Source: Eubacteriales bacterium (GTDB taxonomy: Bacteria; Bacillota; Clostridia; Oscillospirales; CAG-272). Taken from it: a stretch of DNA of 45,891 bases. Position 1 is the stretch's first letter. Every line of letters starts with the position of its first letter. The notes below the pieces were generated by a model. That model saw nothing but the letters and a program-made list of their open reading frames with translations. It was not told where the DNA came from and searched no databases. Shown here piece after piece: positions 1 to 37,442 of this stretch. The stretch covers positions 1 through 45,891 of the forward strand of contig JAZOMD010000109.1 in the NCBI GenBank assembly GCA_045653745.1, written 5' to 3'. The position numbers and the translations under genes were made by a program.

Positions 1-3000
1 TAAGCAGTGAAGGAAACGTATACCTTGCCTGCTGCGTATTCGTCAGCGGTGATTTCTACGGTGTTCTGCTCACCGTCGTATATATTCTGCTTGATGGTGA
101 TCTCGTCGCTTTCGCCACCTTCGTCCTCGCCGCCCTCGTCGCCGCCTGCGCCGCCTGCGAAGGAAACGTTGATTACGAACTCGCCTGCATTGTTCCAGGT
201 GCCAAGACCTACTCTGTAAGTCTTGCCTGCCTCAACGGTGATTGACATTTCGGTGCCCTGGCTACCGGTGCCGTTGTTCGCGGTGGTGTTGTTGCCGTTC
301 ATCTCGAACCAGTCACCCCAAGAGTCACCGGATACCCAAGTAAAGGTAACGGTACCGTTCCCGGTGGCGGTAAAGAGATAGTAAATCTTGTTGATAGTAT
401 CGGAGTTTATAGTTACCGACTCGGGGAGAGTATCCCAAACGTAAGGATTGCCTTCGCTTCCGTCGCCCTCACCGGTAGAAGGTGCGGTGTAGGTAACGTT
501 AACGGTGAACGAGCCTGCAGTGCTCATTATATTAACGAACGTAACGGTGTAGGTACCGGGAGCGAGAGTAACCTGACCTCTACCGATCTGCATACCCGTA
601 GAATCAAAGAAGATAGCGAGAAGGTCGCCGGATACGGTGTAAGTACCGTCTGCGTCTGCAACGAAGGTGTAGCTCTTGCCGTCAGCAAGATCGGCATCTT
701 CAAGGACTATGGTGTTCGAGCCGAGATTAAGCACGGGGAGAGAGGGTGCGGGATCGTCGCCATCGTCACCGCCCTCGTCACCGCCCTCGGGTGCGGTGGT
801 GGAAAGAGCAAGCTCAGCGCTATAAACGAACACGGAGGGTTTTCCGTCGGGACCGAATTTGAGGTATCCGAAATACTGAGCCATACTGTTGGTGTCGTCG
901 TAAGGCGGGTTGCCGTTAAGAGTGTAGGTAACCTTGCCTGCTTCGATAACGTAGGTGTAGTTCTGCACAACGCTGCCTGAGGTGTAGGTCATAGTGCCGT
1001 CAGAGTTGATAACGAGCACGCCGTCAGCGGTGTAATAAGTACCGGAGATGTCAGCCGCGATATTGCCGCTGCCCTCGCCTTCGCCGCCTTCGCCGCCGCC
1101 AACGTTACCCTCGCCGCCTTCGACCTCGCAAGCAACGAATCCAACGCCGATCTCCCATACTACGTTCTTAGTAGTTGCGCCAACCTTGAAGGAGATGGAA
1201 GCGCCAGCCTTAAGCTCGAAGTTTACGTAGCCTCCGTTAGGTGCGATATTGTAGTCAACTGCGGGCTCCTGCTCGCCGTCAATCCAAAGACCAAGTCCTG
1301 CAGGAACGGTAAGAGAATACGCGCCCTCTGCCGGAGCGGTAAAGGTGTATGCATCCTCCCATGCGTAAGTATCCGTCGTAACTACGTAATACTTAGTTGC
1401 AGTATTTTCGGGAACTACAAGCTCGGACACAGTGGGAACGGTGATAATAATGGTCTTGGTAATCTTACCGAAGTTAACGGTAACGGTGTACTCGCCGGGA
1501 TCTGCAACCTTGAAGGTAATGCAATCCATATATGAGGAGTAGCTGGGTCTTACGAATTCCTCATCATTCCAAAGGATACCGGCATCGCCCGTCTTGTTGT
1601 TAACGAACGACATAGAGAAGTCGTTAACGTCAAGCGCGCTCGCAGTAGCGGTTACGGGAACGAGAGAGGAAAGATGGAGACGAACGTACTCGTCCTTAGC
1701 AAGAGTAAGGTCGATAATACCGTCCTCGTTGGTATCAACGATAGGAGTCTCGCTAGTAATGTACATACTACCGCTTTCGGGATCGGTATCGGTACCGGTT
1801 ACGTAGGAGAGACCGAAATCGGTGGGGATAAGAGAGGTCTTCGGATAGATAGTGGTGTAGGTTCTCTCGCCCGATCTCTGGCTTACGGAGTATGCGTAGA
1901 TAGAGGGAGTTGCGGTATCGAGGAGAGTAACGGTGTTGTTCACGGGATCATAGGTGATGTCGTTATCGACCTCCCAGTTTCTGTAGGAAGAAATAGCGAA
2001 GTCAGCGCGATTGATAACCCCAAGATCGTCAACGGTGAACTCGATTGCTACGCCGTAGAGATAAACCTGATACTGGGTAGTGTCGTCGCTCATCTCGGTA
2101 GCGTTAACGGTGAAGTATCTGAACTCTACGTTGTAAATACCGGTTTTGGCATCGTAGGACTCGGTGAAGCCCGAAACGTTGGTTCCCGCCTCGGCAATTC
2201 CGTAGATAGCGTAAAGGGTATTTGCAAGAGTAGAGGTATCAACGTCGGTGCCGGGAAGAATTCCGCCGGGCTGATAGGTGTAGCCGCTGAGGAACTGCTC
2301 GTCGCCTGCGGCAACCTCAATAACGTTGGAGCCTGCTACCATCTGTACTGCAAACACCTCCTCGTCGGAAATGCGCTCGTACCACTGATGGTCGCCGCCG
2401 ACGAAGTCGCCGTTCATATCGAAGGTCTTGTAGAATATGTAGGAATCGCTGTTACCGAGAACGAAGTAAACCTCGTTGGTCTGAGCATTCTCGACGACAA
2501 GATTTGCGGCAGTACCGCCGTAAACTATCTGTCCTGCGATTACGTTACCGTCGATAACCTTACCGTTCTGCGCAACTGCGGCAGCAAGAACGGCAGCGAT
2601 ATCGGTCTTATCAACCTCTTTCACCTTAGCCTCACAAACGGTACAGTAGCCCGCTGCGTTCAGCTCGTGAGCCGCCTTGTCAGCAACCTCTACGCTGTGC
2701 TCACAGAGAGCTGCGTGCCAGTGATATTCACCGTCACCCGACCATTCGTCGTCGTAGTAGTGGTTGTGAATGTCTCTGATTACGTAGAAGCAATCGTCAC
2801 ACTTGCCGTCGTCGTCAGCGTCAGCGTGAGCTGCTACGTCTGCACCTACAGCCAAGTGGCCGCAATCAGCCGCGTGCCAGTGATTAACGCAGTCAACAGT
2901 CCATTCTTCAGCGTACGAATGTCCGTCTGCACAAGCCATCTTGTATTCGCAAACGTCACATGCGCCATCATTGTTTTTGTCTGCATGGGCGAGCTTTACT

Positions 3001-3173
3001 TCAGTAACGTCCTCGCACTCGCAGGTCGCAGCATACCAGTGTCCCGAAGCGTCCGACGTCCAGGTCTCGGCAAAGGTATGTACGTGTGGGGTTCCTTCTC
3101 CCGTGCCGGCACACGATGCGAGAGCAACTACGCAAAGCATAAGCGCGAGAAGAAGAGCAAGTACTCTTTTCAT
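1..3173 (-). CDS. Large surface lipoprotein (at least 1057 aa, runs off the left edge) with three N-terminal His/Cys-rich repeats and several beta-sandwich domains separated by G/E/D linkers
   Basis: Hand translation from ATG at 3173 (AGGAGG RBS upstream) gives MKRVLALLLALMLCVVALAS-C-AGTGEG, a lipobox LASC. The frame stays open to the window edge, so the ORF track omits it. It has its own sigma-A promoter at 3287-3315. Confidence 0.9.
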   Translation of the reverse strand, partial: MKRVLALLLALMLCVVALASCAGTGEGTPHVHTFAETWTSDASGHWYAATCECEDVTEVKLAHADKNNDGACDVCEYKMACADGHSYAEEWTVDCVNHWHAADCGHLAVGADVAAHADADDDGKCDDCFYVIRDIHNHYYDDEWSGDGEYHWHAALCEHSVEVADKAAHELNAAGYCTVCEAKVKEVDKTDIAAVLAAAVAQNGKVIDGNVIAGQIVYGGTAANLVVENAQTNEVYFVLGNSDSYIFYKTFDMNGDFVGGDHQWYERISDEEVFAVQMVAGSNVIEVAAGDEQFLSGYTYQPGGILPGTDVDTSTLANTLYAIYGIAEAGTNVSGFTESYDAKTGIYNVEFRYFTVNATEMSDDTTQYQVYLYGVAIEFTVDDLGVINRADFAISSYRNWEVDNDITYDPVNNTVTLLDTATPSIYAYSVSQRSGERTYTTIYPKTSLIPTDFGLSYVTGTDTDPESGSMYITSETPIVDTNEDGIIDLTLAKDEYVRLHLSSLVPVTATASALDVNDFSMSFVNNKTGDAGILWNDEEFVRPSYSSYMDCITFKVADPGEYTVTVNFGKITKTIIITVPTVSELVVPENTATKYYVVTTDTYAWEDAYTFTAPAEGAYSLTVPAGLGLWIDGEQEPAVDYNIAPNGGYVNFELKAGASISFKVGATTKNVVWEIGVGFVACEVEGGEGNVGGGEGGEGEGSGNIAADISGTYYTADGVLVINSDGTMTYTSGSVVQNYTYVIEAGKVTYTLNGNPPYDDTNSMAQYFGYLKFGPDGKPSVFVYSAELALSTTAPEGGDEGGDDGDDPAPSLPVLNLGSNTIVLEDADLADGKSYTFVADADGTYTVSGDLLAIFFDSTGMQIGRGQVTLAPGTYTVTFVNIMSTAGSFTVNVTYTAPSTGEGDGSEGNPYVWDTLPESVTINSDTINKIYYLFTATGNGTVTFTWVSGDSWGDWFEMNGNNTTANNGTGSQGTEMSITVEAGKTYRVGLGTWNNAGEFVINVSFAGGAGGDEGGEDEGGESDEITIKQNIYDGEQNTVEITADEYAAGKVYVSFTA
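2634..3086 (-). repeat. Three approximately 50-aa His/Cys repeats (HxH/H...W..D...HW.AA.C.[CH]...H...CxxC)
   Basis: HVHTFAETWTSDASGHWYAATCECEDVTEVKLAHADKNNDGACDVC / GHSYAEEWTVDCVNHWHAADCGHLAVGADVAAHADADDDGKCDDC / HNHYYDDEWSGDGEYHWHAALCEHSVEVADKAAHELNAAGYCTVC. Confidence 0.85.
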
Positions 3174-3286
3174 TTTAGAGCCTCCTTAAAATTTATATTT
3201 TGTTTTGCGAAAAAACATTTTTCCCCGTTTTTATCCTACCGCCACGCCTTACCGTTCATAGGGTGTGGATAAAATTGGGTATAAAT

Positions 3287-3315
3287 ATTATACAGCAGTA
3301 TACTTTAAAAATCAA
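3287..3315 (-). promoter_or_regulatory. Sigma-A promoter for the large lipoprotein
   Basis: Minus strand TTGATT-17 bp-TATAAT. Confidence 0.7.
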
Positions 3316-3410
3316 GATATTTTTACAAAATAGTTAACGATATGTGAAGATTTGTGCAAACTTCACCTTTCCTCTTTCCAAAAAAAGGCACGACGCTCAA
3401 AGAAGCGCTA

Positions 3411-5024
3411 TTATTTTTTCTCGTAGTAAGCACAGGCGAAAAGCCAGCCTGATTCGCCGATTGCCTGATATTTCTTTCCGTCAAGCTCGTCTTGCTCAAA
3501 TCTTCCCGCACCGTCGTAGAAGAATAGCTCCTTCATGCAGTAGGCGTACAGGAAATCGCGCAGCTCTTCCGTCACCGGAACGAGTCCGTCGGAGTTACAG
3601 TAGTACTGATAGCCTTCAAATCCGACAAGCTCCGGAGGGCACGGGCGGCAATCCCGGTCACAGTTCGAGCAGCCTACGAGGTTGCCGTTGCCGTCGCGCG
3701 TGGCAGCGCAAGCCCAACCCGTATCGGTTTCGGCATTATGACAGGTACAGTCGGTAACGCAGAAATAGCTTCCGTCGTTTACGCTGCCTATGGTTGAAAG
3801 ATGCGTATATCCTTCAATGAGGACCTTATAGTTGTATCCGCCTGCCGTAAGCGCACTGTTGAGTGACTCGCTTGAATCACCCTCATACTCTATTCTGTTG
3901 AACGGCCGCCCGATGAAACGGGTGCTCTCGGTGATATAAGCGTAAAGTATCGGACCGTAGCCGTCGGTCTCGGGATATTTCTCCTTACTGTAGAGGTGAT
4001 AAAATCCGTCTCCGCCGTCGTTTTCGTCCCACATTTTATACAGCCGCTCGTCAAAAACGTAAACGTTCGAAGCTTCATTCAGCCTGTATTCGGGAACGGC
4101 AATGCGATACTCCTCGTCACTGTACTCATGCTCGGATTTTACGAAATCGGAAAAATCGTGAGTAGGAACGGCGAGTCCTCCCTTCGCGACGTCCGTTCCC
4201 TCGGGATACTCAAAGGCGCCGTCGCGCTTTATGGCAAAGGTGACGGTAACCGGATATTTGTTGTTCTTTTCGTCCGCCTTTATCGCAAAGATGTAGTTAT
4301 TTCCAACCTGATCCTCGGTCAGCTTTACGGTATGCAAGAAGTTTATCGTGTAGCTGCCGACGCTGCCACCGTCGTCTATGGTGCGCTGATACCGATTCCA
4401 CGCAAACGAGCCGATGTAAACGTCCATATACGGATTCACGTTATCGGCTTCGGTGTCGACCCAGCTCTCAATGCTGTAAACTCCGTTTTCGGACGGAGAG
4501 TACATAAAGTATATCGCACTGTCCGGGCCGTCAAGCGTTGCCGCGTAAACACCGGTTTTGGAAATCGGATGGCCGCTCATAGAGCCCGTGCCGGTGCCCG
4601 TAAGAATGTTGAGCGTATGAAGCTCGAGCACCACGTTACGGTTATCGTTAGTCGCAATATTTGAGTTGGGGTCGTAGGTATATTCGTTGGGGACGGCGGA
4701 GAGCGTTACCCTATAATCGCCGTCGAGCCCGTCTATTCTGGCGGTGCCCTCCGAGTCAAACTTCGAGGTGTGAACGCTGTAACCGTCGCTCCAAAGAGCA
4801 AACATTTCCATTCTCGGAGAATAGGGCTCGCCGTCGGCGAGGAGAGTTACGGTAAAGTCGTCTGTCGGGTCGTCATTCATTGAAGGCGGCGTATAACCGT
4901 CCGTTCCGCCCTCGCCCCCTCCACCGCCGCCGGAGGGAGTGACGTATTCACCCGAGCAGGCGACCGTGGAAAGAAGCGCGGAAGCAATCAATGCTATTGC
5001 TAATAGTTTTTTCAAAATTTTCAC
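3411..5024 (-). CDS. Lipoprotein: prealbumin/Cna-B-like domain, beta-sandwich, and an unrecognised DGFYH...CxYY domain with an 8-Cys insert
   Basis: GTG start with AAGGGGG RBS; lipobox TVAC; 11 bp downstream of the vWA gene; motifs DGFYHL..GPILYAY, GLVPVTEELRDFL and WLFACAYY are shared with 16333-17709 and 17833-20697. Confidence 0.85.
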   Translation of the reverse strand: MKILKKLLAIALIASALLSTVACSGEYVTPSGGGGGGEGGTDGYTPPSMNDDPTDDFTVTLLADGEPYSPRMEMFALWSDGYSVHTSKFDSEGTARIDGLDGDYRVTLSAVPNEYTYDPNSNIATNDNRNVVLELHTLNILTGTGTGSMSGHPISKTGVYAATLDGPDSAIYFMYSPSENGVYSIESWVDTEADNVNPYMDVYIGSFAWNRYQRTIDDGGSVGSYTINFLHTVKLTEDQVGNNYIFAIKADEKNNKYPVTVTFAIKRDGAFEYPEGTDVAKGGLAVPTHDFSDFVKSEHEYSDEEYRIAVPEYRLNEASNVYVFDERLYKMWDENDGGDGFYHLYSKEKYPETDGYGPILYAYITESTRFIGRPFNRIEYEGDSSESLNSALTAGGYNYKVLIEGYTHLSTIGSVNDGSYFCVTDCTCHNAETDTGWACAATRDGNGNLVGCSNCDRDCRPCPPELVGFEGYQYYCNSDGLVPVTEELRDFLYAYCMKELFFYDGAGRFEQDELDGKKYQAIGESGWLFACAYYEKK

Positions 5025-5035
5025 ATTGTGCCCCC

Positions 5036-7687
5036 TTAAGTAAACTTTTGTTTGCTTTTCGCTCTGTTTATGCGTAATTTCCTTGCCACGATGTCAATAA
5101 CAAATAGCGCTGACGCCGCAATAAGAAGCGGTATAACGTAGCTTTGCTTGTAGAGAGACACCTCGCTCATATCCGTTTTGAGACTGGGTATTTCTCCGAC
5201 GGCAGTTGTGCCGTTATCACGCATAAACCGATATACGTTGTATTTATCGAAGCTTGCAAACATATCGTATTCCGGAAGATAAGCAAGCTCTATTTGGGTA
5301 TTATAGACGTAGGTGTTTTGCCCCGTAGCGTAGGTGATGGAAAGTCTGTAGGTTCCCACCTCTTCGGTAGCAAGGGTGAAGAAATGCTTCGAGCCGTCGT
5401 AGGTAAGAGTGCGGGATATCGTTCTTCCGCCGGGGAAGATTATTCTCATCGAAGCGCTCGCCAACGGGTCAATAACCGCAGGAACAAGCTCCACGTACGC
5501 GTTATATTCCGTGCGCTCCACGTTTACGGAAAGCGGAAGCTCTATTCTTTCAGAGGGGGTATTGCTGAGAAGAAGATTAGATAAGAATTTGCTTCTTTCA
5601 TCTTCACTCCACCTCTCGGTCCACGCATCCGAAAGCGAGGTTGCAAGGCTGGCTACCCTGCCGTTTCCGTGAGAGCGGTAAGCGTAGAGAGGAACCGTCT
5701 CCTGATAACCGTTTTCCTTAAGATAAGTAACGGTAAGCGGAACGGTGGCATCGTATTTAGCGACCGAAAGAATGTAGCCCGAAACCTTCGAGAGAGAAGT
5801 AATTCCGCTGAGAATACCATCTCCGGGCTTAGCAAGAGAAACGGATGAATCCTTGCGTATCACTACGTCGGCAAAACTCTCCGCTACACTTCCAAAAACC
5901 ACGCCGGATACGTCCTCGAGCCTGTTAAGTCGGTAAAAATTACCGCCCTCGCCTGCATTTACGACATTGTAAAGATAGGTTTCTCCTGCTGGGTCGTCGG
6001 TGTTGGAATAGATGTTTACAGCCGATACCGCAGCCCCCTTTGCATAAAGGTCGGCGGCTACCTCAAGTGCCGTTCTGTCGCTATCAAAGCTGAGTCCGTC
6101 AGAAAGAATCATTACCTGATTATGCGAAAGGTTAAGCGCATTCACCGCCGCGAGAGCCTCCTCAAGTCCAAGACCTATATCGGTTCCGTGCGAAGACGTA
6201 ATTTCGTTGATATACGAGATAAGCTCGTCCTTACAATCCCCTGCTCTTCTCGGGATTTTAACGTTAATTTTGCCCGAGAAGGTAACGAGGCAGACGTAAT
6301 CGTCGTCTTCTATAACCGAAAGGAGCTTTATCGCGGTATCCTTAGCCATGTTGAGCTTATCAGCCATAAACATACTGTGAGATGCATCGAGGAGTATCGT
6401 ATAGAGTCTTCCGTCCGTTCCCGTGCTTCCGAAATCCACGGGAAGAATCTCCTCAAGCCTCTTAAAGGTAGAGTCGTCGGAATTTGTATGAAGCTCGAGA
6501 TTTCCAAGAGTTATAAGACTTTTCCCGTACTGGGACACAACCGTGGAAACGGTGTCTATGAATGCGTTCGCGTTTCTTATATCTCTAACGTCAAGGTTAG
6601 AAAGAATTATTTCATCGTACTTTATAAGCGCCTCGACGTTTACGGGAACGCGGTCGTTATTTCCCACGACGTAGCTGTCGACGGTTACGCTCTCGCCCTG
6701 CATAGCTCTTATCAGCTGCTCGTCTGCGTAGCTTCCCGTAACGAGAAGAATATTTTTGCTCCCCACCACCTTCTGCGTAAAGGTGCAAGCGTTATTGTAC
6801 TCGGAAAGATCGTCCTCGCTCTCCAGAGTGGCTTTATACTCAAAGGAGCCGACCAGGTCTGCCGGGAGTGCCATTCTAACGGTTGTAAGACCGGAATCGG
6901 CGCTTATTACCGTATCTGCTATCAGCTCGAATTCAGCATCGGCACCCTCGTCAATCGACCTTCTGTAAAGGCTGAAAACGGCGTCAAGCTTTGACGAGGA
7001 CTGAATAAGGAACCTCGCTTCGCTTTTGTGGTTGAGATACGCCGTGGCAGACGCCTCGCAGTCAAGAAGCTGAATCTCCTTTTCGTCCTCCGAAAGAGAG
7101 TTGTCAAGAAAGATTGCGTCTATTTTTATACCGTTTTCGGTGATATTTTCTACCGCCTCGGCAATAGACGAAACGCTGTTACCCGTCGTATCGTTTCCGT
7201 CCGTGATAAGGACTATCCTCTTCAAGGAATCGCCACCAAAAAGCCCTGCCGTGAAGGTAAGCGCACCGACTATATCGGTTGCGCTCTCGTCAACGTTCGC
7301 CTCGGAAACACTTTTCAGCGTCCTTCCAGCCGGAGTCAGTATAACGCAGTCCTTTCCGAAGCAGACGACGCCCAGCTCCGAGTTTTCGGGAAGAGAACTC
7401 TTGATTTTGTCGACGTATGCGTCTATTTCCTCTTGTTTTCTTTCGGAAGAATAGGAGGTATCCGCAAGAACGTATACCGTGGTTTTCGTAAGAACGCGCG
7501 TACTTGAAAGACCTGCGACCGCAAGGGTCACGAGCACGCCGATAACAAGGTGAATAAAGAGCGATGCAGTCCAGCCTATTGAACGGTTATCTTTATTCCT
7601 TATGAGGATAAAAGGAATTATGAAAACGAGTGCAACAGGTATTATCAGCAAAAGCAGATAAGGGTTATCGAAGCTGATATTTTTCAT
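5036..7687 (-). CDS. Membrane protein with two vWA domains and a split class-I glutamine amidotransferase-like domain (MoxR/Bat-associated)
   Basis: N-terminal double TM (FDNPYLLLL), MIDAS-like DTSYS and DASHS, LITDGND and ILSDG, C-terminal TM. Start moved to MKNISF (7687), which overlaps the upstream stop. Confidence 0.88.
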   Translation of the reverse strand: MKNISFDNPYLLLLIIPVALVFIIPFILIRNKDNRSIGWTASLFIHLVIGVLVTLAVAGLSSTRVLTKTTVYVLADTSYSSERKQEEIDAYVDKIKSSLPENSELGVVCFGKDCVILTPAGRTLKSVSEANVDESATDIVGALTFTAGLFGGDSLKRIVLITDGNDTTGNSVSSIAEAVENITENGIKIDAIFLDNSLSEDEKEIQLLDCEASATAYLNHKSEARFLIQSSSKLDAVFSLYRRSIDEGADAEFELIADTVISADSGLTTVRMALPADLVGSFEYKATLESEDDLSEYNNACTFTQKVVGSKNILLVTGSYADEQLIRAMQGESVTVDSYVVGNNDRVPVNVEALIKYDEIILSNLDVRDIRNANAFIDTVSTVVSQYGKSLITLGNLELHTNSDDSTFKRLEEILPVDFGSTGTDGRLYTILLDASHSMFMADKLNMAKDTAIKLLSVIEDDDYVCLVTFSGKINVKIPRRAGDCKDELISYINEITSSHGTDIGLGLEEALAAVNALNLSHNQVMILSDGLSFDSDRTALEVAADLYAKGAAVSAVNIYSNTDDPAGETYLYNVVNAGEGGNFYRLNRLEDVSGVVFGSVAESFADVVIRKDSSVSLAKPGDGILSGITSLSKVSGYILSVAKYDATVPLTVTYLKENGYQETVPLYAYRSHGNGRVASLATSLSDAWTERWSEDERSKFLSNLLLSNTPSERIELPLSVNVERTEYNAYVELVPAVIDPLASASMRIIFPGGRTISRTLTYDGSKHFFTLATEEVGTYRLSITYATGQNTYVYNTQIELAYLPEYDMFASFDKYNVYRFMRDNGTTAVGEIPSLKTDMSEVSLYKQSYVIPLLIAASALFVIDIVARKLRINRAKSKQKFT

Positions 7688-9509: not shown

Positions 9510-10390
9510 TTAAGCACCCCCAAATCAACCAGATTTCCGAAAAAGACGTCAAAGAGCTTTTCGTGAGCGGGAACGAGAAGATAGGCTCCGCCTCTGGATT
9601 CACAGTAATTCTTGATTCTCTCAACGACAAAGCGCAAAGCGGCTTTGTAGGCGTTCACTCTGTCTTTATCTATCTTCTTACGGAAGAAGCGCTGCGGATC
9701 TTCCGAATCGAAAAGGTGCATTTTCCCTCTGAACTGCGGATTAAGCTCCTCACGGGAAAGAATCTGCACGCAGAAAACGTCCCTTCTCTGCTCCGTAAGC
9801 TTGTCTATCGCCTGCACGAAATCCGCGTCGGTCAGAAAGTCCGAAATTATTATAGAATACCCGTCGCCCATACCTATTTTCGAATTTACTATCGCCTCGC
9901 TGATAGCCACGTCGTCGGTGAATTCTATTTCATTGAGCTTGTTAACAGAGGCAAGATAGGCTTCCTTGCCAACTATACCGGAAATGATTTCGTCAAGTCT
10001 GCCACCGTGTATTGCGTACACCGACACCTTATCCATCTCACACACCGAAAGATATGCAAACGCCGCCGCCATCTTCAGCACCTGCTCGGCCTTTTCCTGA
10101 CTTGAAAACCGAACGGAACGGCTTGCGTCTATATATATCTTCGTATGCATCTGGCGCTCGTCCAGATACAGCTTCTGAAAAAGCTTGTCCGAGCGAGCGT
10201 AGATTTTCCAGTCGATTTTATTGATATCGTCGCCTTCTCTGTACTCGCGGTAATCCGCGAAGTCACACGACGAGCCAAAATTCTTCGACCTATGGTTTCC
10301 GCCAAACATTCCGGCAATATTGTTTTTGAGGACCGTTTCAAGGGCTTCAAGCTCCATAAGAAACGCCTCGTCAATTACCATTTTTCCCAT
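9506..10390 (-). CDS. DUF58 family protein (vWA-like MoxR partner)
   Basis: G.HRS..FG.S.DFADYREYREGDDINKIDWKIYAR; DASRS; IISDF. Confidence 0.93.
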   Translation of the reverse strand: MGKMVIDEAFLMELEALETVLKNNIAGMFGGNHRSKNFGSSCDFADYREYREGDDINKIDWKIYARSDKLFQKLYLDERQMHTKIYIDASRSVRFSSQEKAEQVLKMAAAFAYLSVCEMDKVSVYAIHGGRLDEIISGIVGKEAYLASVNKLNEIEFTDDVAISEAIVNSKIGMGDGYSIIISDFLTDADFVQAIDKLTEQRRDVFCVQILSREELNPQFRGKMHLFDSEDPQRFFRKKIDKDRVNAYKAALRFVVERIKNYCESRGGAYLLVPAHEKLFDVFFGNLVDLGVLK

Positions 10391-12963: not shown

Positions 12964-12997
12964 AAAATCTCCTAAAATAATATATGTTAATAATAAT

Positions 12998-13026
12998 ATT
13001 ATACCAAAGAGGGCGACTAATGTCAA
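12998..13026 (-). promoter_or_regulatory. Consensus sigma-A promoter for the moxR-vWA-lipoprotein operon
   Basis: Minus strand TTGACA-17 bp-TATAAT with extended -10 TGG. Confidence 0.85.
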
Positions 13027-13083
13027 CATTTAATTTTTAAATTACTGTTCTATGAGTAGGAAAGCTTTTTGCGGCTTTTGCTC

Positions 13084-13112
13084 GTGACAATTTGCGAATA
13101 CTATTGTATAAT
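13084..13112 (+). promoter_or_regulatory. Sigma-A promoter for the divergent thiol-redox pair
   Basis: GTGACA-17 bp-TATAAT. Confidence 0.7.
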
Positions 13113-13157
13113 TATTTCGTTAATTTTTCACTCGACAAATTCAAGAAAGGACAGGTT

Positions 13158-13994: not shown

Positions 13995-13995
13995 T

Positions 13996-15573: not shown

Positions 15574-15597
15574 AATTTTTGAGTGTATTTTTTGAGA

Positions 15598-20697: not shown

Positions 20698-20856
20698 CTT
20701 TCTTTTTCCTTTCACGTAAGTCCGCTTGCAAGTTTTCGTTTCTGACAAAAGATAACGCGGTGCAAGTGGGATTTGAAAACCTTATCCCGAGAGTTTTTTA
20801 CGAAAAACACGAAAATTCTTCATCTTCTCGGGCAATAATTATATTTTCACCCTTTT

Positions 20857-29820: not shown

Positions 29821-32658
29821 ATGAAAAACAAAATAATTTCATTGCTGCTGTGTATTGTAATGCTGCTTGGTATTACCTCGGTTCTTTCCGGTTGTAGCGG
29901 TAGTGGAAATCAGGCGTTCGTCATAATGACCGACAACCTTGACGGTCTTTTTAACCCGTTCTATTCAACGAGTGCATCTGACGGATCGATAGTTTCCATG
30001 ACACAGGTAGGTATGCTGACCTCGGGAATCGACGAAAACGGTAACGCAGTAGTGGCATTCGGCCCCGGCGAATCGGTAGTCACACTCGATTACGCATCAA
30101 GCTACGACAGCACAGAGCAAAGCGAAAATCCCAACAAAACGGGAGTTACAACCTATACGTTTGTAATAAAAAACGGACTTAAGTATTCGGACGGAGAGGC
30201 TCTCACCATCGAGGACGTCCTGTTCAATCTGTACGTTTATCTCGACCCTGTTTACACAGGCTCGTCCACCATGTACTCGACAGACATTTTAGGTCTGTCG
30301 CAGTACAGGACTCAGCAAAATCTTTCGGGCGGCTCGAGCGGAGATGAATGGCTCACCTCTGCTGCGCGAAACCTCGCCTCAAACCGTATAAACGAGCTTA
30401 TCAACCTCTTCAAGGAAAAGGGCGTAACCTCGTCCGGAAATTATTCCATAAGCTATGCGGATATGAAAGAGGCAATCCTCGCTCACAACGTTTCCTCGGG
30501 ATATAAGGAATCCATCTCCAACGACCCCGAATCGGTAGACTCGGAGAACCTTCTTGCCGACTACGAGCTCGCCCTCAAGTATTTTAAGGAAGAGCTTGAA
30601 AACGACTATAAGAGCGCTCAGGAAGCGTTCACCGAGGTTCCCTATAAGAATCACGATGAGTTCAAGGATCCCATCTTTGCATTTATGTGCTACGAGGGAC
30701 TTGTTACCGTTGAGTATGAGAAGGACCCTGTAACCAACAAGGATATAAAAACTCAGATAAAGAAGCTCACTCCTATGTATAACGTCTCCACCATAAAGAC
30801 TATGAAGGACGCTATCGACTACGTTTACAACCGTAAGATAAGCACCGAGCTTGACGTTATTCTCCGCTACTGGGCAACTGCTCAGAAGCTCGAAACCGAG
30901 TTCCTTGCGAAGGCAAAAGAGGTTCTTCTGAAGAAAAATACTCTTTCCGGCGAGCTTGCATATCCCAATATTTCCGGTATCGTTTCTCTCGGTCATACAA
31001 CCGACGTTGAATCGATTGAGGTAAACGGAACGACCTACACGGTTGCGCACGAGCACAACGAAAACGGAACGCCGAAGAACCCCGGCGAATACGACGTTCT
31101 TCAAATCAAGATAAACGGCATAGACCCTAAAGCCGTGTGGAACTTCTCGTTTGCGGTTGCACCCCAGCACTACTATGCGGAGGGCTACACCGTAGACATC
31201 AAGGAGAACAAATTCGGAGTTGATTACGGTAGCTTCGACTTTATGACCGACACTATTCAGTCGCAGAGAAACGTGTCCGTTCCTATGGGAGCCGGCGCAT
31301 ATATGGCGACCAATAACAGGAACGAGGACGAGGTTACCGGTACCGAATTCTTCAGCAGTAACGTCGTTTACTTCAAGGCTAACCCCTACTTTGAGGAAAG
31401 TATGGAAGCAACCCTTCCCGTGGGCTCTGCCGTAGACTACAAGGTCAACATTGAAAAGGTTCGTTACCAGATAGTTCCCACCAACGACGCACTTACTATG
31501 CTTCAGTCGGGTACGGTACACTACGTAACGCCTCAGCTGACGAAGGAAAACGCCGCTATTCTCGACTCTATCAAGTCTAAGGGTTACGAAAAGATTGCGG
31601 TAGACCAGCTCGGATACGGTTATATCGGTATCAACGCCGGAGAAATCCCGAACATCTACCTTCGCCGCGCGATTATGGCTGCTATGGATACGAGCCTTGC
31701 GCTCCAGTATTACGACGCAGGTACGGCAGAGCAGATTTTCTGGCCTATGTCTACCGTAAGCTGGGCGTATCCCAAGGACGAGAGCGGCAATAACAAGCAG
31801 ACCAACGGTCACGCCTATCCGTATATCCGATTTGACGAGGCTAAGGCGCTCGAGAACATCAGGTCGCTTATGACTCAGGCGTATGACCACGCCAACTATT
31901 CCGACTCCGACCTCAAGGTTACATTTACCATCGCGGGCTCGGACCTTACCGACCACCCGACCTACCAGGTATTCCAGACCGCCGCTAAGCTTCTTAACCA
32001 ATGCGGCTGGAGCGTTGAGGTTATCGCCGATACTCAGGCGCTGACCAAGCTTTCCACCGGCTCGCTCGCGGTATGGGCTGCTGCTTGGGGTACCACCGTT
32101 GACCCCGATATGTATCAGGTATATCACAAAAACTCCAACGCATCGAGCGTTAAGGCGTGGGGATACAATTATATTCTTGCAAACGAGAGCGCGTATTGGA
32201 TGGAAATGGATATACTCAACAAGATGAGCGAAATCATTGACAATGCGCGTGAGACCGACGTTCAGGCAGACCGTACCGCTCTTTACGAGGAGGCTATGGG
32301 CTACGTTCTGGACCTTGCAATCGAGCTTCCCGTATATCAGAGAAAGCAGCTCTACGCCTACAATGCAAACGTCGTTGATTCGACCTCGTTCCCCGAAGAG
32401 ATAAACCCCTATTCCTCACCCCTTGACAGAATCTGGGAGATAAAGCTCAACGAGGGAGCAGCCACCGGCGGCTCGTCCTCTTCAGGACTTGTTATCGGAA
32501 TCATTCTTGGTGTAACGGCTCTTGCCGCTGCGGCAGTCGCAGGTACTGTTATCTACAAGAAAAAGAGAAGAATAGGATACGTTATTCCCGTCGAGCAGAT
32601 CGATGCGGAGGACCTCGACGCATTCTACAAATTCTACAAATTCAAAAAAAGAAAGTGA
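29821..32658 (+). CDS. oppA: Oligopeptide ABC transporter substrate-binding protein (family 5), enlarged, with lipobox and C-terminal TM
   Basis: Lipobox LSGC; LDGLFNPFY; YTFVIKNGLKYSDGEALTIEDVLF; MGAGAY; YGYIGINA..LRRAIMAAMD; LPVYQR. Confidence 0.92.
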   Translation: MKNKIISLLLCIVMLLGITSVLSGCSGSGNQAFVIMTDNLDGLFNPFYSTSASDGSIVSMTQVGMLTSGIDENGNAVVAFGPGESVVTLDYASSYDSTEQSENPNKTGVTTYTFVIKNGLKYSDGEALTIEDVLFNLYVYLDPVYTGSSTMYSTDILGLSQYRTQQNLSGGSSGDEWLTSAARNLASNRINELINLFKEKGVTSSGNYSISYADMKEAILAHNVSSGYKESISNDPESVDSENLLADYELALKYFKEELENDYKSAQEAFTEVPYKNHDEFKDPIFAFMCYEGLVTVEYEKDPVTNKDIKTQIKKLTPMYNVSTIKTMKDAIDYVYNRKISTELDVILRYWATAQKLETEFLAKAKEVLLKKNTLSGELAYPNISGIVSLGHTTDVESIEVNGTTYTVAHEHNENGTPKNPGEYDVLQIKINGIDPKAVWNFSFAVAPQHYYAEGYTVDIKENKFGVDYGSFDFMTDTIQSQRNVSVPMGAGAYMATNNRNEDEVTGTEFFSSNVVYFKANPYFEESMEATLPVGSAVDYKVNIEKVRYQIVPTNDALTMLQSGTVHYVTPQLTKENAAILDSIKSKGYEKIAVDQLGYGYIGINAGEIPNIYLRRAIMAAMDTSLALQYYDAGTAEQIFWPMSTVSWAYPKDESGNNKQTNGHAYPYIRFDEAKALENIRSLMTQAYDHANYSDSDLKVTFTIAGSDLTDHPTYQVFQTAAKLLNQCGWSVEVIADTQALTKLSTGSLAVWAAAWGTTVDPDMYQVYHKNSNASSVKAWGYNYILANESAYWMEMDILNKMSEIIDNARETDVQADRTALYEEAMGYVLDLAIELPVYQRKQLYAYNANVVDSTSFPEEINPYSSPLDRIWEIKLNEGAATGGSSSSGLVIGIILGVTALAAAAVAGTVIYKKKRRIGYVIPVEQIDAEDLDAFYKFYKFKKRK

Positions 32659-32670
32659 TAGGAGGACACT

Positions 32671-33651
32671 ATGTTAAAGTATATAATTAAAAGACTTTTA
32701 CTTTCTATACTCATACTTCTCGGTGTTTCTCTTATCATCTACGTTCTCATCAGATGTATGCCCGTTGACTTCGTTACGCAGAAGCTCTCGTCCATAACGA
32801 CCACGGGTGCTGAAACATCGCAGGAATTGATTGACGCTATGCTGAAAACCTACGGTCTTGACACTAACATTTTCGAGGGATACATATCCTGGCTCGGAAA
32901 GCTTCTGAGATTTGATTTCGGCGATAGCTTCAAGTACGGCATTCCCGTTATATCGGTAATCAAGGAGCATATGGGCGTTTCCTTCGCCGTAGCGCTTATA
33001 GCAACGTTTTTCGAATTTATGATTGCTATTCCGCTCGGAATTACCGCGGCAACTCATCAGTATTCAATACGCGACTACGTTGTAACCGTCATCGTTATGA
33101 TCGGTATTTCACTGCCCTCGTTCTTCTTCGGACAGCTGCTCAAAAACATCTTTGCGATTCAGCTCGAATGGTTCCCTGCCTCGGGTCTTATCGACGCTTC
33201 TAAGGATTTGTCCGGATTCCCACTTCTTCTTGACCAGATGTGGCACTTGTTCATTCCCATACTGACCGTAGTTATACTTAGTATAGGCGGACGAATGAGA
33301 ATGACCAGAACGAATATGCTCGAGGTTCTCAACTCGGATTATATCCGTACCGCAAGAGCTAAGGGCCTTAAGGAAAAGGTAGTTATCTACAAGCACGCAT
33401 TCAGAAATACGATGATTCCTCTCGTCACCTCGCTTGCAGGACTTCTCCCCGGTCTTTTCTCGGGTGCTATTATCACTGAGCAGGTGTTCGGTCTTCCCGG
33501 TATCGGTAACAAGGCCTTTGAGGCAATGCTCGTCGCAGACATTCCCTTCATAATGGGATATAATATGTTCTTGGCTTTGCTTAGCGTTCTCGGTGTTCTT
33601 CTTGCCGACCTTATGTACGCTCTGGTTGACCCAAGAGTTAAGCTTGAGTAA
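32671..33651 (+). CDS. oppB: Oligopeptide ABC transporter permease
   Basis: MLKYIIKRLL; DFGDS; TRTNMLEVLNSDYIRTARAKGL; HAFRN; DPRVK. Confidence 0.95.
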   Translation: MLKYIIKRLLLSILILLGVSLIIYVLIRCMPVDFVTQKLSSITTTGAETSQELIDAMLKTYGLDTNIFEGYISWLGKLLRFDFGDSFKYGIPVISVIKEHMGVSFAVALIATFFEFMIAIPLGITAATHQYSIRDYVVTVIVMIGISLPSFFFGQLLKNIFAIQLEWFPASGLIDASKDLSGFPLLLDQMWHLFIPILTVVILSIGGRMRMTRTNMLEVLNSDYIRTARAKGLKEKVVIYKHAFRNTMIPLVTSLAGLLPGLFSGAIITEQVFGLPGIGNKAFEAMLVADIPFIMGYNMFLALLSVLGVLLADLMYALVDPRVKLE

Positions 33652-33666
33652 GGAGGTGCGGATACG

Positions 33667-34776
33667 ATGGAAAATAACAATTTCAATATTGAAAAAGACG
33701 AAAACGAAATAGTCGTAAATTCTATCAATGAAGAAAACGAAGCTCTCGGAAAATCCGAGGCAGAAGAAGCAACGCACGAGCAAACGCTCAAGCTGATGTC
33801 TCCTATGCAGATGGTTATCCGCCGCTTCTTCCGTTCAAAGCTCAGTATAATCGGTCTTGTAATGGTCGTATCGCTCTTCTTATTCTGCTGGGCAGGTCCC
33901 CTGTTTTATCAGGTATCTCCCACAGAGATAGATAAGGACGGTAAAACCGAATACACGACGAAATGGGTCGAATACGAAGACGAAAACGGCAATATAAAGG
34001 GATTTTATCAGGTTATAGAGACGCAGTTAACCGACAATATGCTTTCCAAGCCCTCAACGAAGCACCCTCTCGGCACGGATAAAACGGGTAAGGACGTCCT
34101 CGCAAGACTGATGAACGGCGGTAAAATTTCGCTTACCATCAGCTTTATGGCGGTATTTATAGTTACGTTTTTCGGAATCATTTTCGGCGGTATCGCGGGT
34201 TATTTCGGCGGCGTTGTCGATAACGTAATAATGAGAATCTGCGATATACTTATGTGTCTGCCGGGATTCCCTATCCTGCTTATCGTCGGCACTATTATCG
34301 ACGGCTTACGAGAGAGCGGTATGGGTGTGTTCGACTATCAGTATAAGATATACTGGCTGATGGGATTCCTAACGCTTATTTCCTGGTCGGGAACGGCGCG
34401 TCTTGTACGCGGTCAGATTCTATCTCTGCGCGAGCAGGAATATATGGTTGCGGCAGAGGCTATGGGATATTCCACCGGAAGAAAGATATTCAAGCACCTC
34501 GTTCCCAACGTTATGCCCCAGCTTATCGTTTCTATGACCTTAAGCCTTGGCAGCATGATTCTTTACGAGGCATCGCTTTCATACCTTGGACTCGGTGCTC
34601 CCGAGCAGTACGCAGCCTGGGGTACTATGATTAATGCAGCAAAAGACCCCGATATTCTTTCCAACTATTTCAACGTATGGGGCCCTCCCGGAATTTGTAT
34701 TATCATCGCCGTTCTCGGCTTCAACTTTGTAGGTGACGGTCTGCGCGATGCACTTGACCCGAAGATGAGGAGATAA
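33667..34776 (+). CDS. oppC: Oligopeptide ABC transporter permease
   Basis: HPLGTDKTGKDVLARL; RGQILSLREQEYMVAAEAMG; NFVGDGLRDALDP. Confidence 0.95.
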   Translation: MENNNFNIEKDENEIVVNSINEENEALGKSEAEEATHEQTLKLMSPMQMVIRRFFRSKLSIIGLVMVVSLFLFCWAGPLFYQVSPTEIDKDGKTEYTTKWVEYEDENGNIKGFYQVIETQLTDNMLSKPSTKHPLGTDKTGKDVLARLMNGGKISLTISFMAVFIVTFFGIIFGGIAGYFGGVVDNVIMRICDILMCLPGFPILLIVGTIIDGLRESGMGVFDYQYKIYWLMGFLTLISWSGTARLVRGQILSLREQEYMVAAEAMGYSTGRKIFKHLVPNVMPQLIVSMTLSLGSMILYEASLSYLGLGAPEQYAAWGTMINAAKDPDILSNYFNVWGPPGICIIIAVLGFNFVGDGLRDALDPKMRR

Positions 34777-34779
34777 ACT

Positions 34780-36156
34780 ATGAAGTTGACAGAAAAGCTT
34801 AAAGAACTGAAAAACAAGGTGACGGGCGGCAAGAAGGACGGCACGGGAAGACATTACCTTTCTGCAAAGGAAATCCGTGATATTTCAAAGGCAAACGCCA
34901 AGGTTATGATGGCGCTTGAAAAGAAAAAGCACAGAAAAGCCGATGAAAGCGAATTCGTCACCAAAATGAAGGATGACAGAAACATCCTTGAAATAGAAAA
35001 TCTTCACACCTACTTTTTCACCGACCAGGGAGTTGTAAAAGCGGTTAACGGCATTTCTTTTAACATTCCGAAGGGTTCGACCGTCGGAATTGTCGGAGAA
35101 TCGGGCTGCGGAAAGTCGGTTACAAGCATGTCGGTTATGCGTCTGCTCCAGGGTCCGCAGGGACAGATATACGCAGGAAGCATAAGATTCAAGTCCTACG
35201 ACTTCAAGCGCGACAAGGACGGAAATCCCATTCCGATATTCGAGCGCAAGCCTAACGGAAAGGTTCTTTTCAAGACCTTGAAGGATAAGGACGGAAACGA
35301 CGTTCTTGATAAAGAGGGAAATCCCGTCAGGGTTCCCTCGCAAAAGACCAATGAATCCGGCATGCTTATGTACGAGATGGAAGAAAAGGTATTCGATATC
35401 GCCGAGATGCCGATAGACGAAATTCACCGCATACGCGGAAGGCAGATAGCGATGATATTCCAGGAGCCTATGACCTCCCTTAACCCCGTTTTCACTATAG
35501 GAAATCAGCTTGACGAGGTAGTTTTCGTGCATACTGCGGGAGCTACCAAGGAAATGGCTAAGGCTCGCTCCATAGAGATGCTCAAGCTCGTCGGTATCGC
35601 AATGCCGGAGCGCGTTTACAACGCATATCCCCACGAGCTTTCGGGCGGTATGCGCCAGAGAGTTATGATATCCATGGCTCTTGCCTGTGACCCCCGTCTT
35701 ATCATCGCAGACGAGCCCACCACCGCTCTTGACGTTACGATACAGGCGCAGATACTCGACCTTCTCCGTGACCTTAAGAAGAGAATTAACGGCTCTATAA
35801 TGCTTATCACGCACGACCTCGGTATCGTTGCCGAGATGGCCGACTACGTGGTAGTTATGTATGCTGGCAGAGTTATCGAGCAGGGCACCGTTTCGGAGAT
35901 ATTCCATGATCCTAAGCACCCCTACACCATAGGACTCCAGAAGTCGAAGCCGACTATGAAGTCGGACAGCGATACGCTCTTCAACATTCCCGGAAACGTT
36001 CCAAACCCCGTAAATATGCCCACTCACTGCTTCTTCAAAGAAAGATGCTCGCAGTGTGTTGCAAAATGCTCGGGCGACTACCCTTGTATGGTAAAGGTCT
36101 CCCCTACTCATTACGTGGCTTGCCACCTGTACAGCGAGGTAAATGAGAATGACTAA
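34780..36156 (+). CDS. oppD: Oligopeptide ABC transporter ATPase with an N-terminal extension and an internal insertion
   Basis: GESGCGKS; FQEPMTSLNP; YPHELSGGMRQR; IIADEPTTALD; HPYT; C-terminal Cys motif. Confidence 0.94.
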   Translation: MKLTEKLKELKNKVTGGKKDGTGRHYLSAKEIRDISKANAKVMMALEKKKHRKADESEFVTKMKDDRNILEIENLHTYFFTDQGVVKAVNGISFNIPKGSTVGIVGESGCGKSVTSMSVMRLLQGPQGQIYAGSIRFKSYDFKRDKDGNPIPIFERKPNGKVLFKTLKDKDGNDVLDKEGNPVRVPSQKTNESGMLMYEMEEKVFDIAEMPIDEIHRIRGRQIAMIFQEPMTSLNPVFTIGNQLDEVVFVHTAGATKEMAKARSIEMLKLVGIAMPERVYNAYPHELSGGMRQRVMISMALACDPRLIIADEPTTALDVTIQAQILDLLRDLKKRINGSIMLITHDLGIVAEMADYVVVMYAGRVIEQGTVSEIFHDPKHPYTIGLQKSKPTMKSDSDTLFNIPGNVPNPVNMPTHCFFKERCSQCVAKCSGDYPCMVKVSPTHYVACHLYSEVNEND

Positions 36157-37210
36157 CGAAAAGATAAACGCACAGGAGAACTCCTCGGAGCTTCTTACCC
36201 AGGCAAACGCGCAGGATAATTCCTCCGAAATTCTTCTTGAGGTAAAGAATCTGCGCAAGTGCTTCCCTCTCAAAAAATCAATAACCGGAAAGGTTCTTTC
36301 CGAGCTGATTGCAGTTGACAACGTTTCCTTTACACTTAAGCCCGGAGAAACCATCGGTATCGTTGGCGAATCGGGATGCGGAAAGACCACTCTCGGCAGA
36401 ACTATACTGAAGCTTCACGAGCCCTCGGGCGGCAAGATAATCTTTAACGGCGAGGATATTACCGACTATTCCGGCAAGGAAATGCGTCATCTGCGCACCG
36501 ATATGCAGATAATCTTCCAGGACCCGTATTCCTCTCTCCCCCCGAGAGCAACGGTTGGCGATATTCTGTCCGAGCCTGTAAAGGTTCACGGCATAGTTCC
36601 CCCCGACAAGGTTAAGGACTACGTCCTTGATCTTATGGAGAAATGCGGTCTTCGCGATTATTACTACGAGCGTTATCCGCACGAGTTCTCGGGCGGACAG
36701 AGACAGCGTATATGTATTGCAAGAGCGCTCTCGGTAAATCCCAAGCTGGTTATATGCGACGAGCCGGTTTCGGCGCTTGACGTTTCAATTCAGGCTCAAA
36801 TAATAAACCTGCTCAAGAGTCTTCAGAAATCGATGAATCTTACCTACCTCTTCATTTCTCACGATTTGTCCGTAGTTAAGTTCATATCCGACAAAATAGG
36901 CGTTATGTATCTCGGCTCTATGGTCGAATTCGGCTCGAAGGCGGATATATTCTCAAATCCTCTTCACCCCTATACGAAGGCTCTCTTCTCGGCTATTCCC
37001 AATCCCGATCCCGACGAGAAAATGAACAGAATCGTTCTCAAGGGAGATATCCCCTCCCCTGCAAATCCTCCGAGCGGATGCCGCTTCCATACCCGTTGTC
37101 CCTATGCTACCGAAAAGTGCAGTCAGGTGACACCCGAATACAAGGAATACGGTGACGGTCACTTTACGGCTTGCCACCTTGTCGAAGAAAACGGTAGCCA
37201 AGATGAGTGA
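36149..37210 (+). CDS. oppF: Oligopeptide ABC transporter ATPase
   Basis: GESGCGKT; FQDPYSSL; YPHEFSGGQRQR; CDEPVSALD; PSGCRFHTRCP. ATG 36149 is better spaced from the GAGG than 36143. Confidence 0.95.
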   Translation: MTNEKINAQENSSELLTQANAQDNSSEILLEVKNLRKCFPLKKSITGKVLSELIAVDNVSFTLKPGETIGIVGESGCGKTTLGRTILKLHEPSGGKIIFNGEDITDYSGKEMRHLRTDMQIIFQDPYSSLPPRATVGDILSEPVKVHGIVPPDKVKDYVLDLMEKCGLRDYYYERYPHEFSGGQRQRICIARALSVNPKLVICDEPVSALDVSIQAQIINLLKSLQKSMNLTYLFISHDLSVVKFISDKIGVMYLGSMVEFGSKADIFSNPLHPYTKALFSAIPNPDPDEKMNRIVLKGDIPSPANPPSGCRFHTRCPYATEKCSQVTPEYKEYGDGHFTACHLVEENGSQDE

Positions 37211-37442
37211 CAAAAGGAAAAAAAAGAAGAAAACCACCTACGTAGACGACGGCTCGACCATCTTCGATATGTCGGGGGTAGCGGACATGCACCCCCGAGG
37301 TCGCGGAACCGGCACGGCGAAGGAGCGATTTGCCACCTATATGAAGTCGGTTAAGCAAATGCTGATACCTATGCTCGTCACAATGGCGGTTATAACCGTC
37401 GTTTTCGGTATAATGTATCTTTTGCTTTCGCTTGCGGAATAA
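37203..37442 (+). CDS. Small single-TM protein at the end of the opp operon
   Basis: MSDKRKKKKKTTYVDDGSTIFDMSGV...C-terminal TM; overlaps the oppF stop. Confidence 0.7.
   Translation: MSDKRKKKKKTTYVDDGSTIFDMSGVADMHPRGRGTGTAKERFATYMKSVKQMLIPMLVTMAVITVVFGIMYLLLSLAE

Follow-up and report, generated by a model that had tools for sequence, protein, structure and literature searches.

Introduction

In lactic acid bacteria the cell-envelope proteinase PrtP (lactocepin) works together with the oligopeptide importer Opp. Here we analyse a locus in which a protease and an importer of this general kind are encoded beside a candidate thiol-redox relay, a family of cysteine-rich lipoproteins and an operon for MoxR and von Willebrand factor A (vWA) proteins. 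The locus fills most of a 45,891-nucleotide stretch of DNA, hereafter the window, which is a complete contig (JAZOMD010000109.1) of the 1.76-Mb, 83% complete metagenome-assembled genome (MAG) GCA_045653745.1, from an Eubacteriales bacterium of the CAG-272 lineage.

Parts of the locus also recall other described systems. In Streptococcus pneumoniae the CcdA1/2-Etrx1/2-MsrAB2 system (PMC3914529) feeds the surface thioredoxin lipoproteins of a Gram-positive cell from inside, and keratinolysis (reviewed in, e.g., PMC7775373) combines disulfide reduction or sulfitolysis with a serine protease, disulfides being broken first and digestion following. Bat-type operons group a MoxR AAA+ ATPase with a DUF58 protein, a protein with the BatA N-terminal domain and vWA proteins that carry MIDAS-like DxSxS motifs. 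What Bat proteins do is itself unsettled. According to PMC3557215, an earlier proposal had them reducing oxidised proteins of the periplasm or exporting reducing power, and Leptospira bat mutants are reported without an oxidative-stress phenotype.

We find that the locus consists of two separately conserved units that are inherited together within this genus. Unit B (g08–g18, 13,092–37,210) probably opens, cuts and imports disulfide-bonded proteins, while unit A (g07–g01, 3–13,029) is a Bat-like MoxR/DUF58/vWA membrane machine to which two lipoproteins of the same family have been added in this genus. We hold with moderate confidence that unit B feeds the cell on protein and has an arm for reducing disulfides, and that unit A is tied to it indirectly. 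An initial annotation, made from the letters of the window, had proposed one system for both units.

Conservation of unit B

Open reading frame (ORF) listing with Pfam and NCBIfam scans gave 23 genes for the window. The first 18 (g01–g18, 3–37,210) encode surface, membrane or transport proteins throughout, and no Pfam match to a housekeeping enzyme was found among them, as had been claimed initially; the span first given for the locus, 1–37,442, needs correction at its right end, where oppF stops at 37,210. Promoter-like sites in both divergent intergenic gaps and ahead of g10 and g01, together with hairpins in the g09/g10 interval (two-way, 15544–15573) and the g12/g11 interval, fit with several transcription units. 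For the interval 12900–22800, no RNA sequencing run was listed as a source, and one DNA run contained a small share (0.14). Unit B contains the following genes:

g08, 13092..13994, + strand: polytopic membrane protein ending in CTECIGLG, the tail matching NF040920 (CD1871A family)
g09, 13987..15489, + strand, overlapping g08: NapH-like polyferredoxin with a TlpA/ResA-type domain (Fer4_5, CX3CP motifs, two 4Fe-4S motifs, CTPC)
g10, 15598..16248, - strand: lipoprotein of 216 aa with Big_1 and CarboxypepD_reg/prealbumin-like domains; strict lipobox
g11, 16333..17709, - strand: lipoprotein of 458 aa with a CxxC..CDxC module, a prealbumin-like domain, a collagen-binding-domain-like sandwich and an unnamed DGFYH...CCYY domain; strict lipobox
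g12, 17833..20748, - strand: lipoprotein of 971 aa with a g11-type N-terminal module, a prealbumin-like domain, a TlpA-type thioredoxin and two copies of the unnamed domain; strict lipobox
g13, 21047..29788, + strand: protease of 2913 aa with signal peptide, S8 domain with PA insert, fn3_5, Big_2 and at least six BspA-type LRR_5 units (Pfam)
g14–g18, 29821..37210, + strand: OppA, OppB, OppC, OppD and OppF (SBP_bac_5; two BPD_transp_1, one with OppC_N; two ABC_tran with oligo_HPY)

When the window proteins were mapped by tblastn onto the DNA around their homologues, g08, g09, g10, g12, g13 and opp were found together in genomes G031 (another family), G003, G023, G020 and G119 (another genus), joined by g11 in G031, G003 and G119. 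The order runs g08>g09> <g10<g11<g12 g13> in the window, the g08–g12 block is inverted in G031, and the lipoprotein genes follow oppF in G119. Unit B is a conserved neighbourhood that survives three gene orders in other genera and families.

A wider survey was built on g09, for which at least 592 relatives were found (one genome per species). The best 80 were kept, all of them the full-length fusion and all from gut MAGs, labelled Clostridia, Eubacteriales, Oscillospiraceae, Lachnospiraceae and the like. In 76 of these 80 loci g08 lies directly upstream of g09, and in 45 an orthologous S8 protease (at least 45% identity) flanks the relay, divergent from g08 in 41 and placed as in the window in four. 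Both flanks were informative in 47 loci, with the protease present in 30 and missing from 17. The lipoprotein g12 occurs in 20 of 30 protease-bearing loci with a right flank of at least 9 kb and in none of 15 without the protease, so the lipoproteins go with the protease. A sample of 200 genomes from the order held the full fusion in three, and in two of these a protease of 60% identity is adjacent; the contig of the third is merely 1.7 kb long.

No common alternative partner emerged from the relay loci that lack an adjacent protease. One of the 17 (L092) has an S8 protease of 41% identity with opp in another layout; in G253 the neighbours are SecA, two unknown ORFs and LemA; and in L096 an ORF of 2334 aa with no Pfam hit (1763–8767, - strand) takes the position of the protease divergent from g08, although two long ORFs of the opposite strand overlap it, and it may be spurious.

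The proposed redox relay

The relay is formed by g08 and g09. Residues 264–300 of g08 match the CD1871A model NF040920 (40.6 bits, cut-off 32), which has 38 positions and a C-terminal CXXC; at 300 aa and with five hydrophobic segments, g08 is far longer than the model. In its Fer4_5 domain, CX3CP motifs and two 4Fe-4S motifs g09 resembles the NapH/MauN/NosR-type polyferredoxins, but it falls far under the NapH cut-offs (82.6 against 213.05 for TIGR02163, 65.7 against 234 for NF007013), and the Pfam/NCBIfam scans found no nap or mau genes in the window. It also differs from NapH-type proteins in adding one further transmembrane segment, preceded by KKRSKR, and then an outward TlpA domain (AhpC-TSA, 1.1e-11, with CTPC), and in having a protein with a CD1871A-type tail as its partner.

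The TlpA domain of g09 is nearest to the 'thioredoxin family protein' chains 4evm_A and 4hqs_A and to ResA. Both g09 and g12 (AhpC-TSA, 2e-14, with CSWC) combine a thioredoxin fold, a CxxC motif and a position outside the membrane, as TlpA/ResA/CcmG proteins do; neither reaches an equivalog-level match to ResA (77.8 bits for g12 and 76.6 for g09, cut-off 170), and other specific thioredoxin models (StoA, TlpA, DsbE) likewise stay under their cut-offs. A search of the assembly (83% complete) for DsbD/CcdA (DsbD_TM, PF02683) gave no match at E 0.01, the control search being positive in 10 of 14 reference genomes. The locus departs from the pneumococcal CcdA-Etrx-MsrAB2 system (PMC3914529) in this, in its candidate feeder, a NapH-like Fe-S protein fused to TlpA, and in its partners, which are the protease, Opp and the unnamed domain with no Msr among them. 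Our literature search found no paper on CD1871A and none on NapH-thioredoxin fusions.

Lipoproteins and an unnamed domain

Five lipoproteins had been counted initially, and a strict lipobox is indeed present in g01, g10, g11 and g12, with a looser one (TVAC) in g02. The sharing of modules is borne out for g11, g12 and g02 by BLASTP and profile comparison: g11 aligns with g12 in the N-terminal module (E 7e-10) and the DGxYH region (E 4e-5) and with g02 at E 4e-4, and a profile of the C-terminal domain built from 21 sequences matches g02 at a probability of 96.3% and g12 at 95.9%. The proposed link to g01 is weak, consisting of a short motif (BLASTP E 0.18). Among the 23 proteins of the window, the motifs D...x.CDxC, DG[FY]Y[HY] and CxYY are confined to the lipoproteins. 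Cysteines number 16 in g01, 12 in g02, 12 in g11 and 17 in g12, and the protease g13 has 22.

The 52 homologues of g11 of similar length include few with a name, and these are called 'hypothetical'. In the AlphaFold model of g11 (pLDDT 91, pTM 0.75) Foldseek recognised a prealbumin/CnaB-like domain and a sandwich like the collagen-binding domains of ColG/ColH (TM score 0.52–0.54 on target), and left residues 285–458 unmatched. Modelled alone (pLDDT 87.5, pTM 0.84), this unnamed domain had no fold match in the PDB (best E 1.4, TM score at most 0.2), and the ESM Atlas returned nothing usable (top score 0.87). It is widespread: in a search of 1.84 billion representatives its profile matched 1098 clusters at E 1e-3, a number that falls to 742 at 1e-10 and to 320 at 1e-30. 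Proteins that carry it mostly have it at their C-terminal end, and in six of seven long members, chosen by length, it is accompanied by Redoxin/AhpC-TSA and Ig/prealbumin domains. This recurrent thioredoxin fusion ties the domain to thiol chemistry. The predicted binding of the g09 TlpA domain to the unnamed domain scored 0.01 against a mark of 0.32, a result that counts neither way.

The protease, the importer and their flank

An S8 domain (Peptidase_S8, 1.2e-41, residues 203–672) with an inserted PA domain (2.6e-17, 474–548) and a following Fn3-like domain (fn3_5, 2.6e-09, 714–833) gives g13 the arrangement of a cell-envelope proteinase, and the nearest solved structures to its protease region are C5a peptidase (7edd_A, 1.2e-57), chemokine protease C (SpyCEP) and cell envelope proteinase A. 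The Pfam S8 match runs over the full profile (positions 1–288 of 288), which suggests that the catalytic domain is intact. In this domain order g13 resembles PrtP, C5a peptidase and SpyCEP, and like PrtP it goes with an Opp importer, here of five genes: a family 5 binding protein, two permeases and two oligo_HPY ATPases, the composition of an Opp-type importer.

The locus differs from the PrtP-Opp system in several respects. At 2913 aa g13 includes about 700 aa of BspA-type leucine-rich repeats (LRRs), and a search for the motif LP.[TSA]G found no LPXTG anchor; instead, hydrophobic segments at about 2355–2380 and 2473–2497 enclose an acidic loop of about 90 aa and are followed by a C-terminal tail of 415 aa, so that the protein is predicted to be held by a transmembrane hairpin. 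OppA is 945 aa long with a C-terminal transmembrane segment, and the conserved neighbourhood also includes thioredoxin lipoproteins and an Fe-S relay. In the window's assembly g13 is the sole S8 gene found and g14 the only SBP_bac_5 gene. Given this single S8 gene, a single OppA-type gene, a protease like C5a peptidase and SpyCEP and the lack of a DsbD/CcdA match, we read unit B as a proteinase/Opp feeding system with a reducing arm.

Some further details of these proteins were noted. Within residues ~2355–2913 of g13 (window 28100–29788, + strand) the 415-aa tail is 31–35% identical in relatives. The unusually long OppA (g14, 29821–32658, + strand) has an N-terminal lipobox and, at residues 889–907, a C-terminal hydrophobic segment followed by a basic tail, and in OppD (34780–36156, + strand, 458 aa) the ABC domain is matched in two stretches. 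A second, paralogous class of giant S8 proteins, about 2500 aa long and 43–50% identical to g13, was also encountered in genomes of the genus (e.g. G251:C11, G022:C4, G260:C5 and G002), some relay-bearing genomes having it as a second copy.

Directly after oppF lies a gene for a CopA-type P-type ATPase with two HMA domains (37560–40046, - strand). A relative of 37% identity follows opp in G031 as well (L012:7864–9558), and weaker matches lie near the relay in L077 and L105; the placement may be chance or reflect a loose link to metal handling. Beyond it, four polysaccharide-type genes (40659–45721, - strand) encode a 423-aa unknown protein, a UDP-glucose dehydrogenase, a flippase and a GT1 glycosyltransferase. 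This stretch has a GC content of 38–41%, against 47–54% for the remaining window, and looks horizontally acquired.

A model for unit B

The following scheme goes beyond the genes, domains, synteny, co-occurrence and fusions observed here in three respects, which we infer: which way electrons flow, what the substrates are and which proteins touch. A cytoplasmic reductant would pass electrons to the Fe-S clusters and CX3CP cysteines of g09, aided by the CxxC-tailed g08, and the outward TlpA domain of g09 would hand them to the thioredoxin lipoprotein g12. The sandwich and unnamed domains of g10–g12, with the LRR array of the protease, may hold substrate proteins, whose disulfides would be reduced before the S8 protease cuts them and Opp imports the peptides. 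Such a route would share with keratinolysis the breaking of disulfides ahead of digestion; keratinolytic systems use secreted or cytosolic reductases or sulfite, and are not known to form a conserved cluster of membrane relay, lipoproteins, protease and importer.

Unit A and its link to unit B

Unit A is transcribed leftwards from g07 and contains the following genes:

g07, 11446..13029, - strand: membrane protein of 527 aa, family-less in the Pfam/NCBIfam scans; first gene of the unit
g06, 10391..11446, - strand: MoxR-type AAA+ ATPase (AAA_3, 2.9e-61; AAA_lid_2; Walker A motif)
g05, 9506..10390, - strand: DUF58 protein (PF01882, 9.9e-26)
g04, 7665..9509, - strand: BatA N-terminal double-transmembrane domain with vWA (PF07584, 1.5e-12; VWA_2; TIGR02226)
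g03, 5036..7711, - strand: membrane protein of 891 aa with two vWA domains (DxSxS at residues 84 and 442)
g02, 3411..5024, - strand: lipoprotein of 537 aa with looser lipobox TVAC, starting 11 bp past g03
g01, 3..3173, - strand: lipoprotein of 1057 aa or more, cut short by the end of the contig; strict lipobox; last gene of the unit

The starts and stops of the core genes overlap or abut. Details of layout given in the initial annotation hold here: g02 begins 11 bp behind the MoxR-DUF58-vWA genes (start 5024, g03 stop 5036), the MoxR operon (g07–MoxR, -) is divergent from the CTECIGLG and polyferredoxin-TlpA pair (g08/g09, +), and in unit B the TlpA-lipoprotein g12 (-), with its CSWC, is divergent from the protease-oppABCDF genes (g13, +). 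Unit A has the MoxR, DUF58, BatA-type and DxSxS vWA proteins of a Bat-type operon side by side; it differs in lacking TPR proteins of the BatB/C/E type (none at E 0.01 in Pfam scans of g01–g07), in the additional membrane protein g07 and in the two appended lipoproteins, which are found in this genus only. The C-terminal half of g02 is the unnamed domain (DGFYH...CAYY) with a Cys-rich insert. No Pfam or NCBIfam family matched g01, in which residues 30–190 form three His/Cys repeats of about 50 aa (H..W...HW..A.C ... H.D...DG.CD.C), followed by beta-sandwich-like segments; the repeats look like small metal-binding modules, and g11 and g12 open with a one-copy version.

Unit A has its own distribution. 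In all ten same-genus loci inspected g07–g02 are colinear, with a g01-like gene next in nine, and g08–g18 were absent from the 20 kb fetched around them. Searches of the 200 genomes of the order sample detected no g02, and g03 in G047 and G039 only; both keep the five-gene core g07–g03, with neither a DGxYH lipoprotein nor the relay fusion. Conversely, two carriers of unit B, G031 and G119, yielded no homologue of g02 or g03, and unit A genes appear in one of the 80 relay loci (L025, genome G286).

Within the genus the units are inherited together. We profiled all 212 other species-level genomes, scoring g02 as marker of unit A, g09 at E no greater than 1e-100 and the protease orthologue at 54% identity or more, and dropping by hand the rows of the 43–50% identity paralogue. 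The g02 marker was found in 53 genomes, g09 in 71 and the protease in 63, combined as follows:

unit A, relay and protease: 50 genomes
unit A and relay, no protease: 3 genomes (G010, G292, G372)
relay and protease, no unit A: 12 genomes
relay only: 6 genomes
protease only: 1 genome
none of the three: 140 genomes
unit A without relay: 0 genomes (all 53 unit A genomes have the relay)

Relay and orthologous protease thus coincide in 62 genomes, with the relay alone of the two in nine and the protease alone in one. Presence of the MoxR block correlates strongly with that of the relay and of the protease. The outcome that the initial annotation had named as the mark of chance clustering, unrelated neighbourhoods with uncorrelated profiles, is therefore not what is seen. 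All carriers fall in the RpoB-nearer half of the genus (at least 80% identity to the window). On a quick tree of RpoB fragments (37 rows) each trait changes state about eight times. G023, left out of the pair counts made on this tree, has two near-identical rpoB copies on different contigs (C80:866–2629 and C12:75184–76947) and is probably a mixed bin.

Physical linkage is a different matter. Of the 53 genomes, 8 have unit A and the relay on one contig and 45 have them on different contigs. Their distance is about 9 kb in G225, G286 and G289, as in the window, 14 kb in G352 and about 23 kb in G273, G412, G238 and G335, an aromatic amino acid biosynthesis operon standing between them in G238; in G243 the units are more than 50 kb apart. 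The single system first proposed survives in part, as the conserved neighbourhood of unit B (three gene orders, 45 of 80 loci), while MoxR/vWA does not belong to the same physical unit. We reject the whole 37 kb as one operon-like unit on the grounds of the separate contigs (45/53), the housekeeping genes between the units in G238 and the absence of unit A from 79 of the 80 relay loci.

Discussion

The tie between the units is most likely indirect, the g01/g02 lipoproteins of unit A also depending on the relay. This is the simplest account of the finding that all 53 unit A genomes have the relay, and it fits with the three genomes that have relay and unit A but no matching protease. Several observations weigh against our reading of unit B as a feeding apparatus with unit A tied to it in this way. 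In 17 of the 47 informative loci the relay has no protease beside it, and it stands alone in G244, G253, G227 and G010, which makes it a somewhat more general module, and the paralogous S8 class is present in genomes without the relay. The unnamed domain keeps one near-invariant cysteine, in its AWLFxCCY tail, in addition to the D, G, Y and H of DGYYH, so a redox role for it is a guess. The genus counts come from MAGs that are 52–100% complete and are uncorrected for shared descent, the extreme values of naive Fisher tests coming from relatives that are not independent. Among six well-supported independent pairs differing in unit A, the relay is concordant in three to five and opposed in none (p 0.06–0.25), a phylogenetic control that is suggestive of the A/relay link and not significant.

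It is possible, though we would not expect it, that the redox arm serves the exported proteins of the cluster itself, keeping the CxxC/His-Cys modules and the unnamed domain's conserved cysteine reduced, for instance for metal binding, or isomerising disulfides. The richness of the lipoproteins and the protease in cysteine would suit this, as would the repeated fusion of the unnamed domain to a thioredoxin domain and the three genomes (G010, G292, G372) that combine relay and unit A lipoproteins while lacking a matching protease; but the unnamed domain offers a single near-invariant cysteine, and the restriction of g12 to protease-bearing loci (20 of 30 against 0 of 15) is left unexplained. 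Such a role is also compatible with the feeding function and does not exclude it. The initial view, in which all 37 kb form one apparatus, MoxR/DUF58/vWA maturing or assembling the lipoproteins and the protease while the relay feeds electrons, we consider unlikely. It draws on the constant company of unit A with the relay (53/53) and mostly the protease (50/53), on sister genomes that differ all-or-none (G003 and G007, G255 and G235), on the units abutting in the window, G225, G286 and G289 and lying 14–23 kb apart on one contig in G352, G335, G273, G412 and G238, and on the unnamed domain common to g02, g11 and g12. It is at odds with the grounds given above for rejecting an operon-like unit and with the distance in G243, with 18 genomes of the genus that have unit B without A, with the lack of g02/g03 homologues in G031 and G119, with the MoxR core of G047 and G039, which lacks both lipoproteins and relay fusion, and with a sign test that was not significant. 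We regard as equally doubtful a version in which relay, MoxR-vWA and protease-Opp are three arms of one co-inherited surface apparatus, tied by the DG[FY]YH...CxYY lipoprotein family: the relay would keep the cysteine of the unnamed domain reduced, MoxR-vWA would load or assemble the g01/g02 branch, and the g11/g12 branch would present disulfide-bonded proteins to the protease. If true, it would provide a concrete client for Bat-type operons and a physiological role for a CcdA-independent relay.

A defence of the cell surface against oxidative stress, like pneumococcal Etrx or the role once proposed for Bat (PMC3557215), with the protease adjacent by accident, seems improbable to us. The nearest relatives of the g09 TlpA domain (4evm_A, 4hqs_A and ResA) would be in keeping with it, but Pfam scans of the window found no methionine sulfoxide reductase, peroxidase or similar gene, the link to protease and Opp survives rearrangements, and the Leptospira bat mutants of that paper lack the phenotype that it would lead one to expect. 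Most improbable of all is that the genes have no functional link, being accessory genes co-inherited in one lineage and side by side by chance. The confinement of all carriers to the RpoB-nearer half of the genus and the non-significant phylogenetic control would allow it; the recurrence of the unit B set in other families, under many NCBI labels and in different orders, speaks against it, as do some eight state changes per trait on the RpoB tree with no discordant independent pair.

We found no paper describing this gene combination or cluster. New here are the setting apart of the MoxR unit, the finding that within the genus it strictly co-occurs with the relay, and what is reported on the unnamed domain: how large its family is, whether its fold is known and that it is fused to thioredoxins. 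How gut Clostridia break down protein is poorly understood, and disulfides protect many of the dietary and host proteins in the gut, among them seed storage proteins, protease inhibitors, mucins and antibodies. A conserved cluster in which a surface protease and peptide importer are paired with outward thioredoxins suggests that hundreds of uncultured species of the herbivore gut have a dedicated route of reduction followed by digestion, with an apparent electron source that is not of the CcdA/DsbD type. The cluster points to an Fe-S relay, to a widespread domain without a recognisable fold and to a possible client for Bat-type MoxR/vWA operons.

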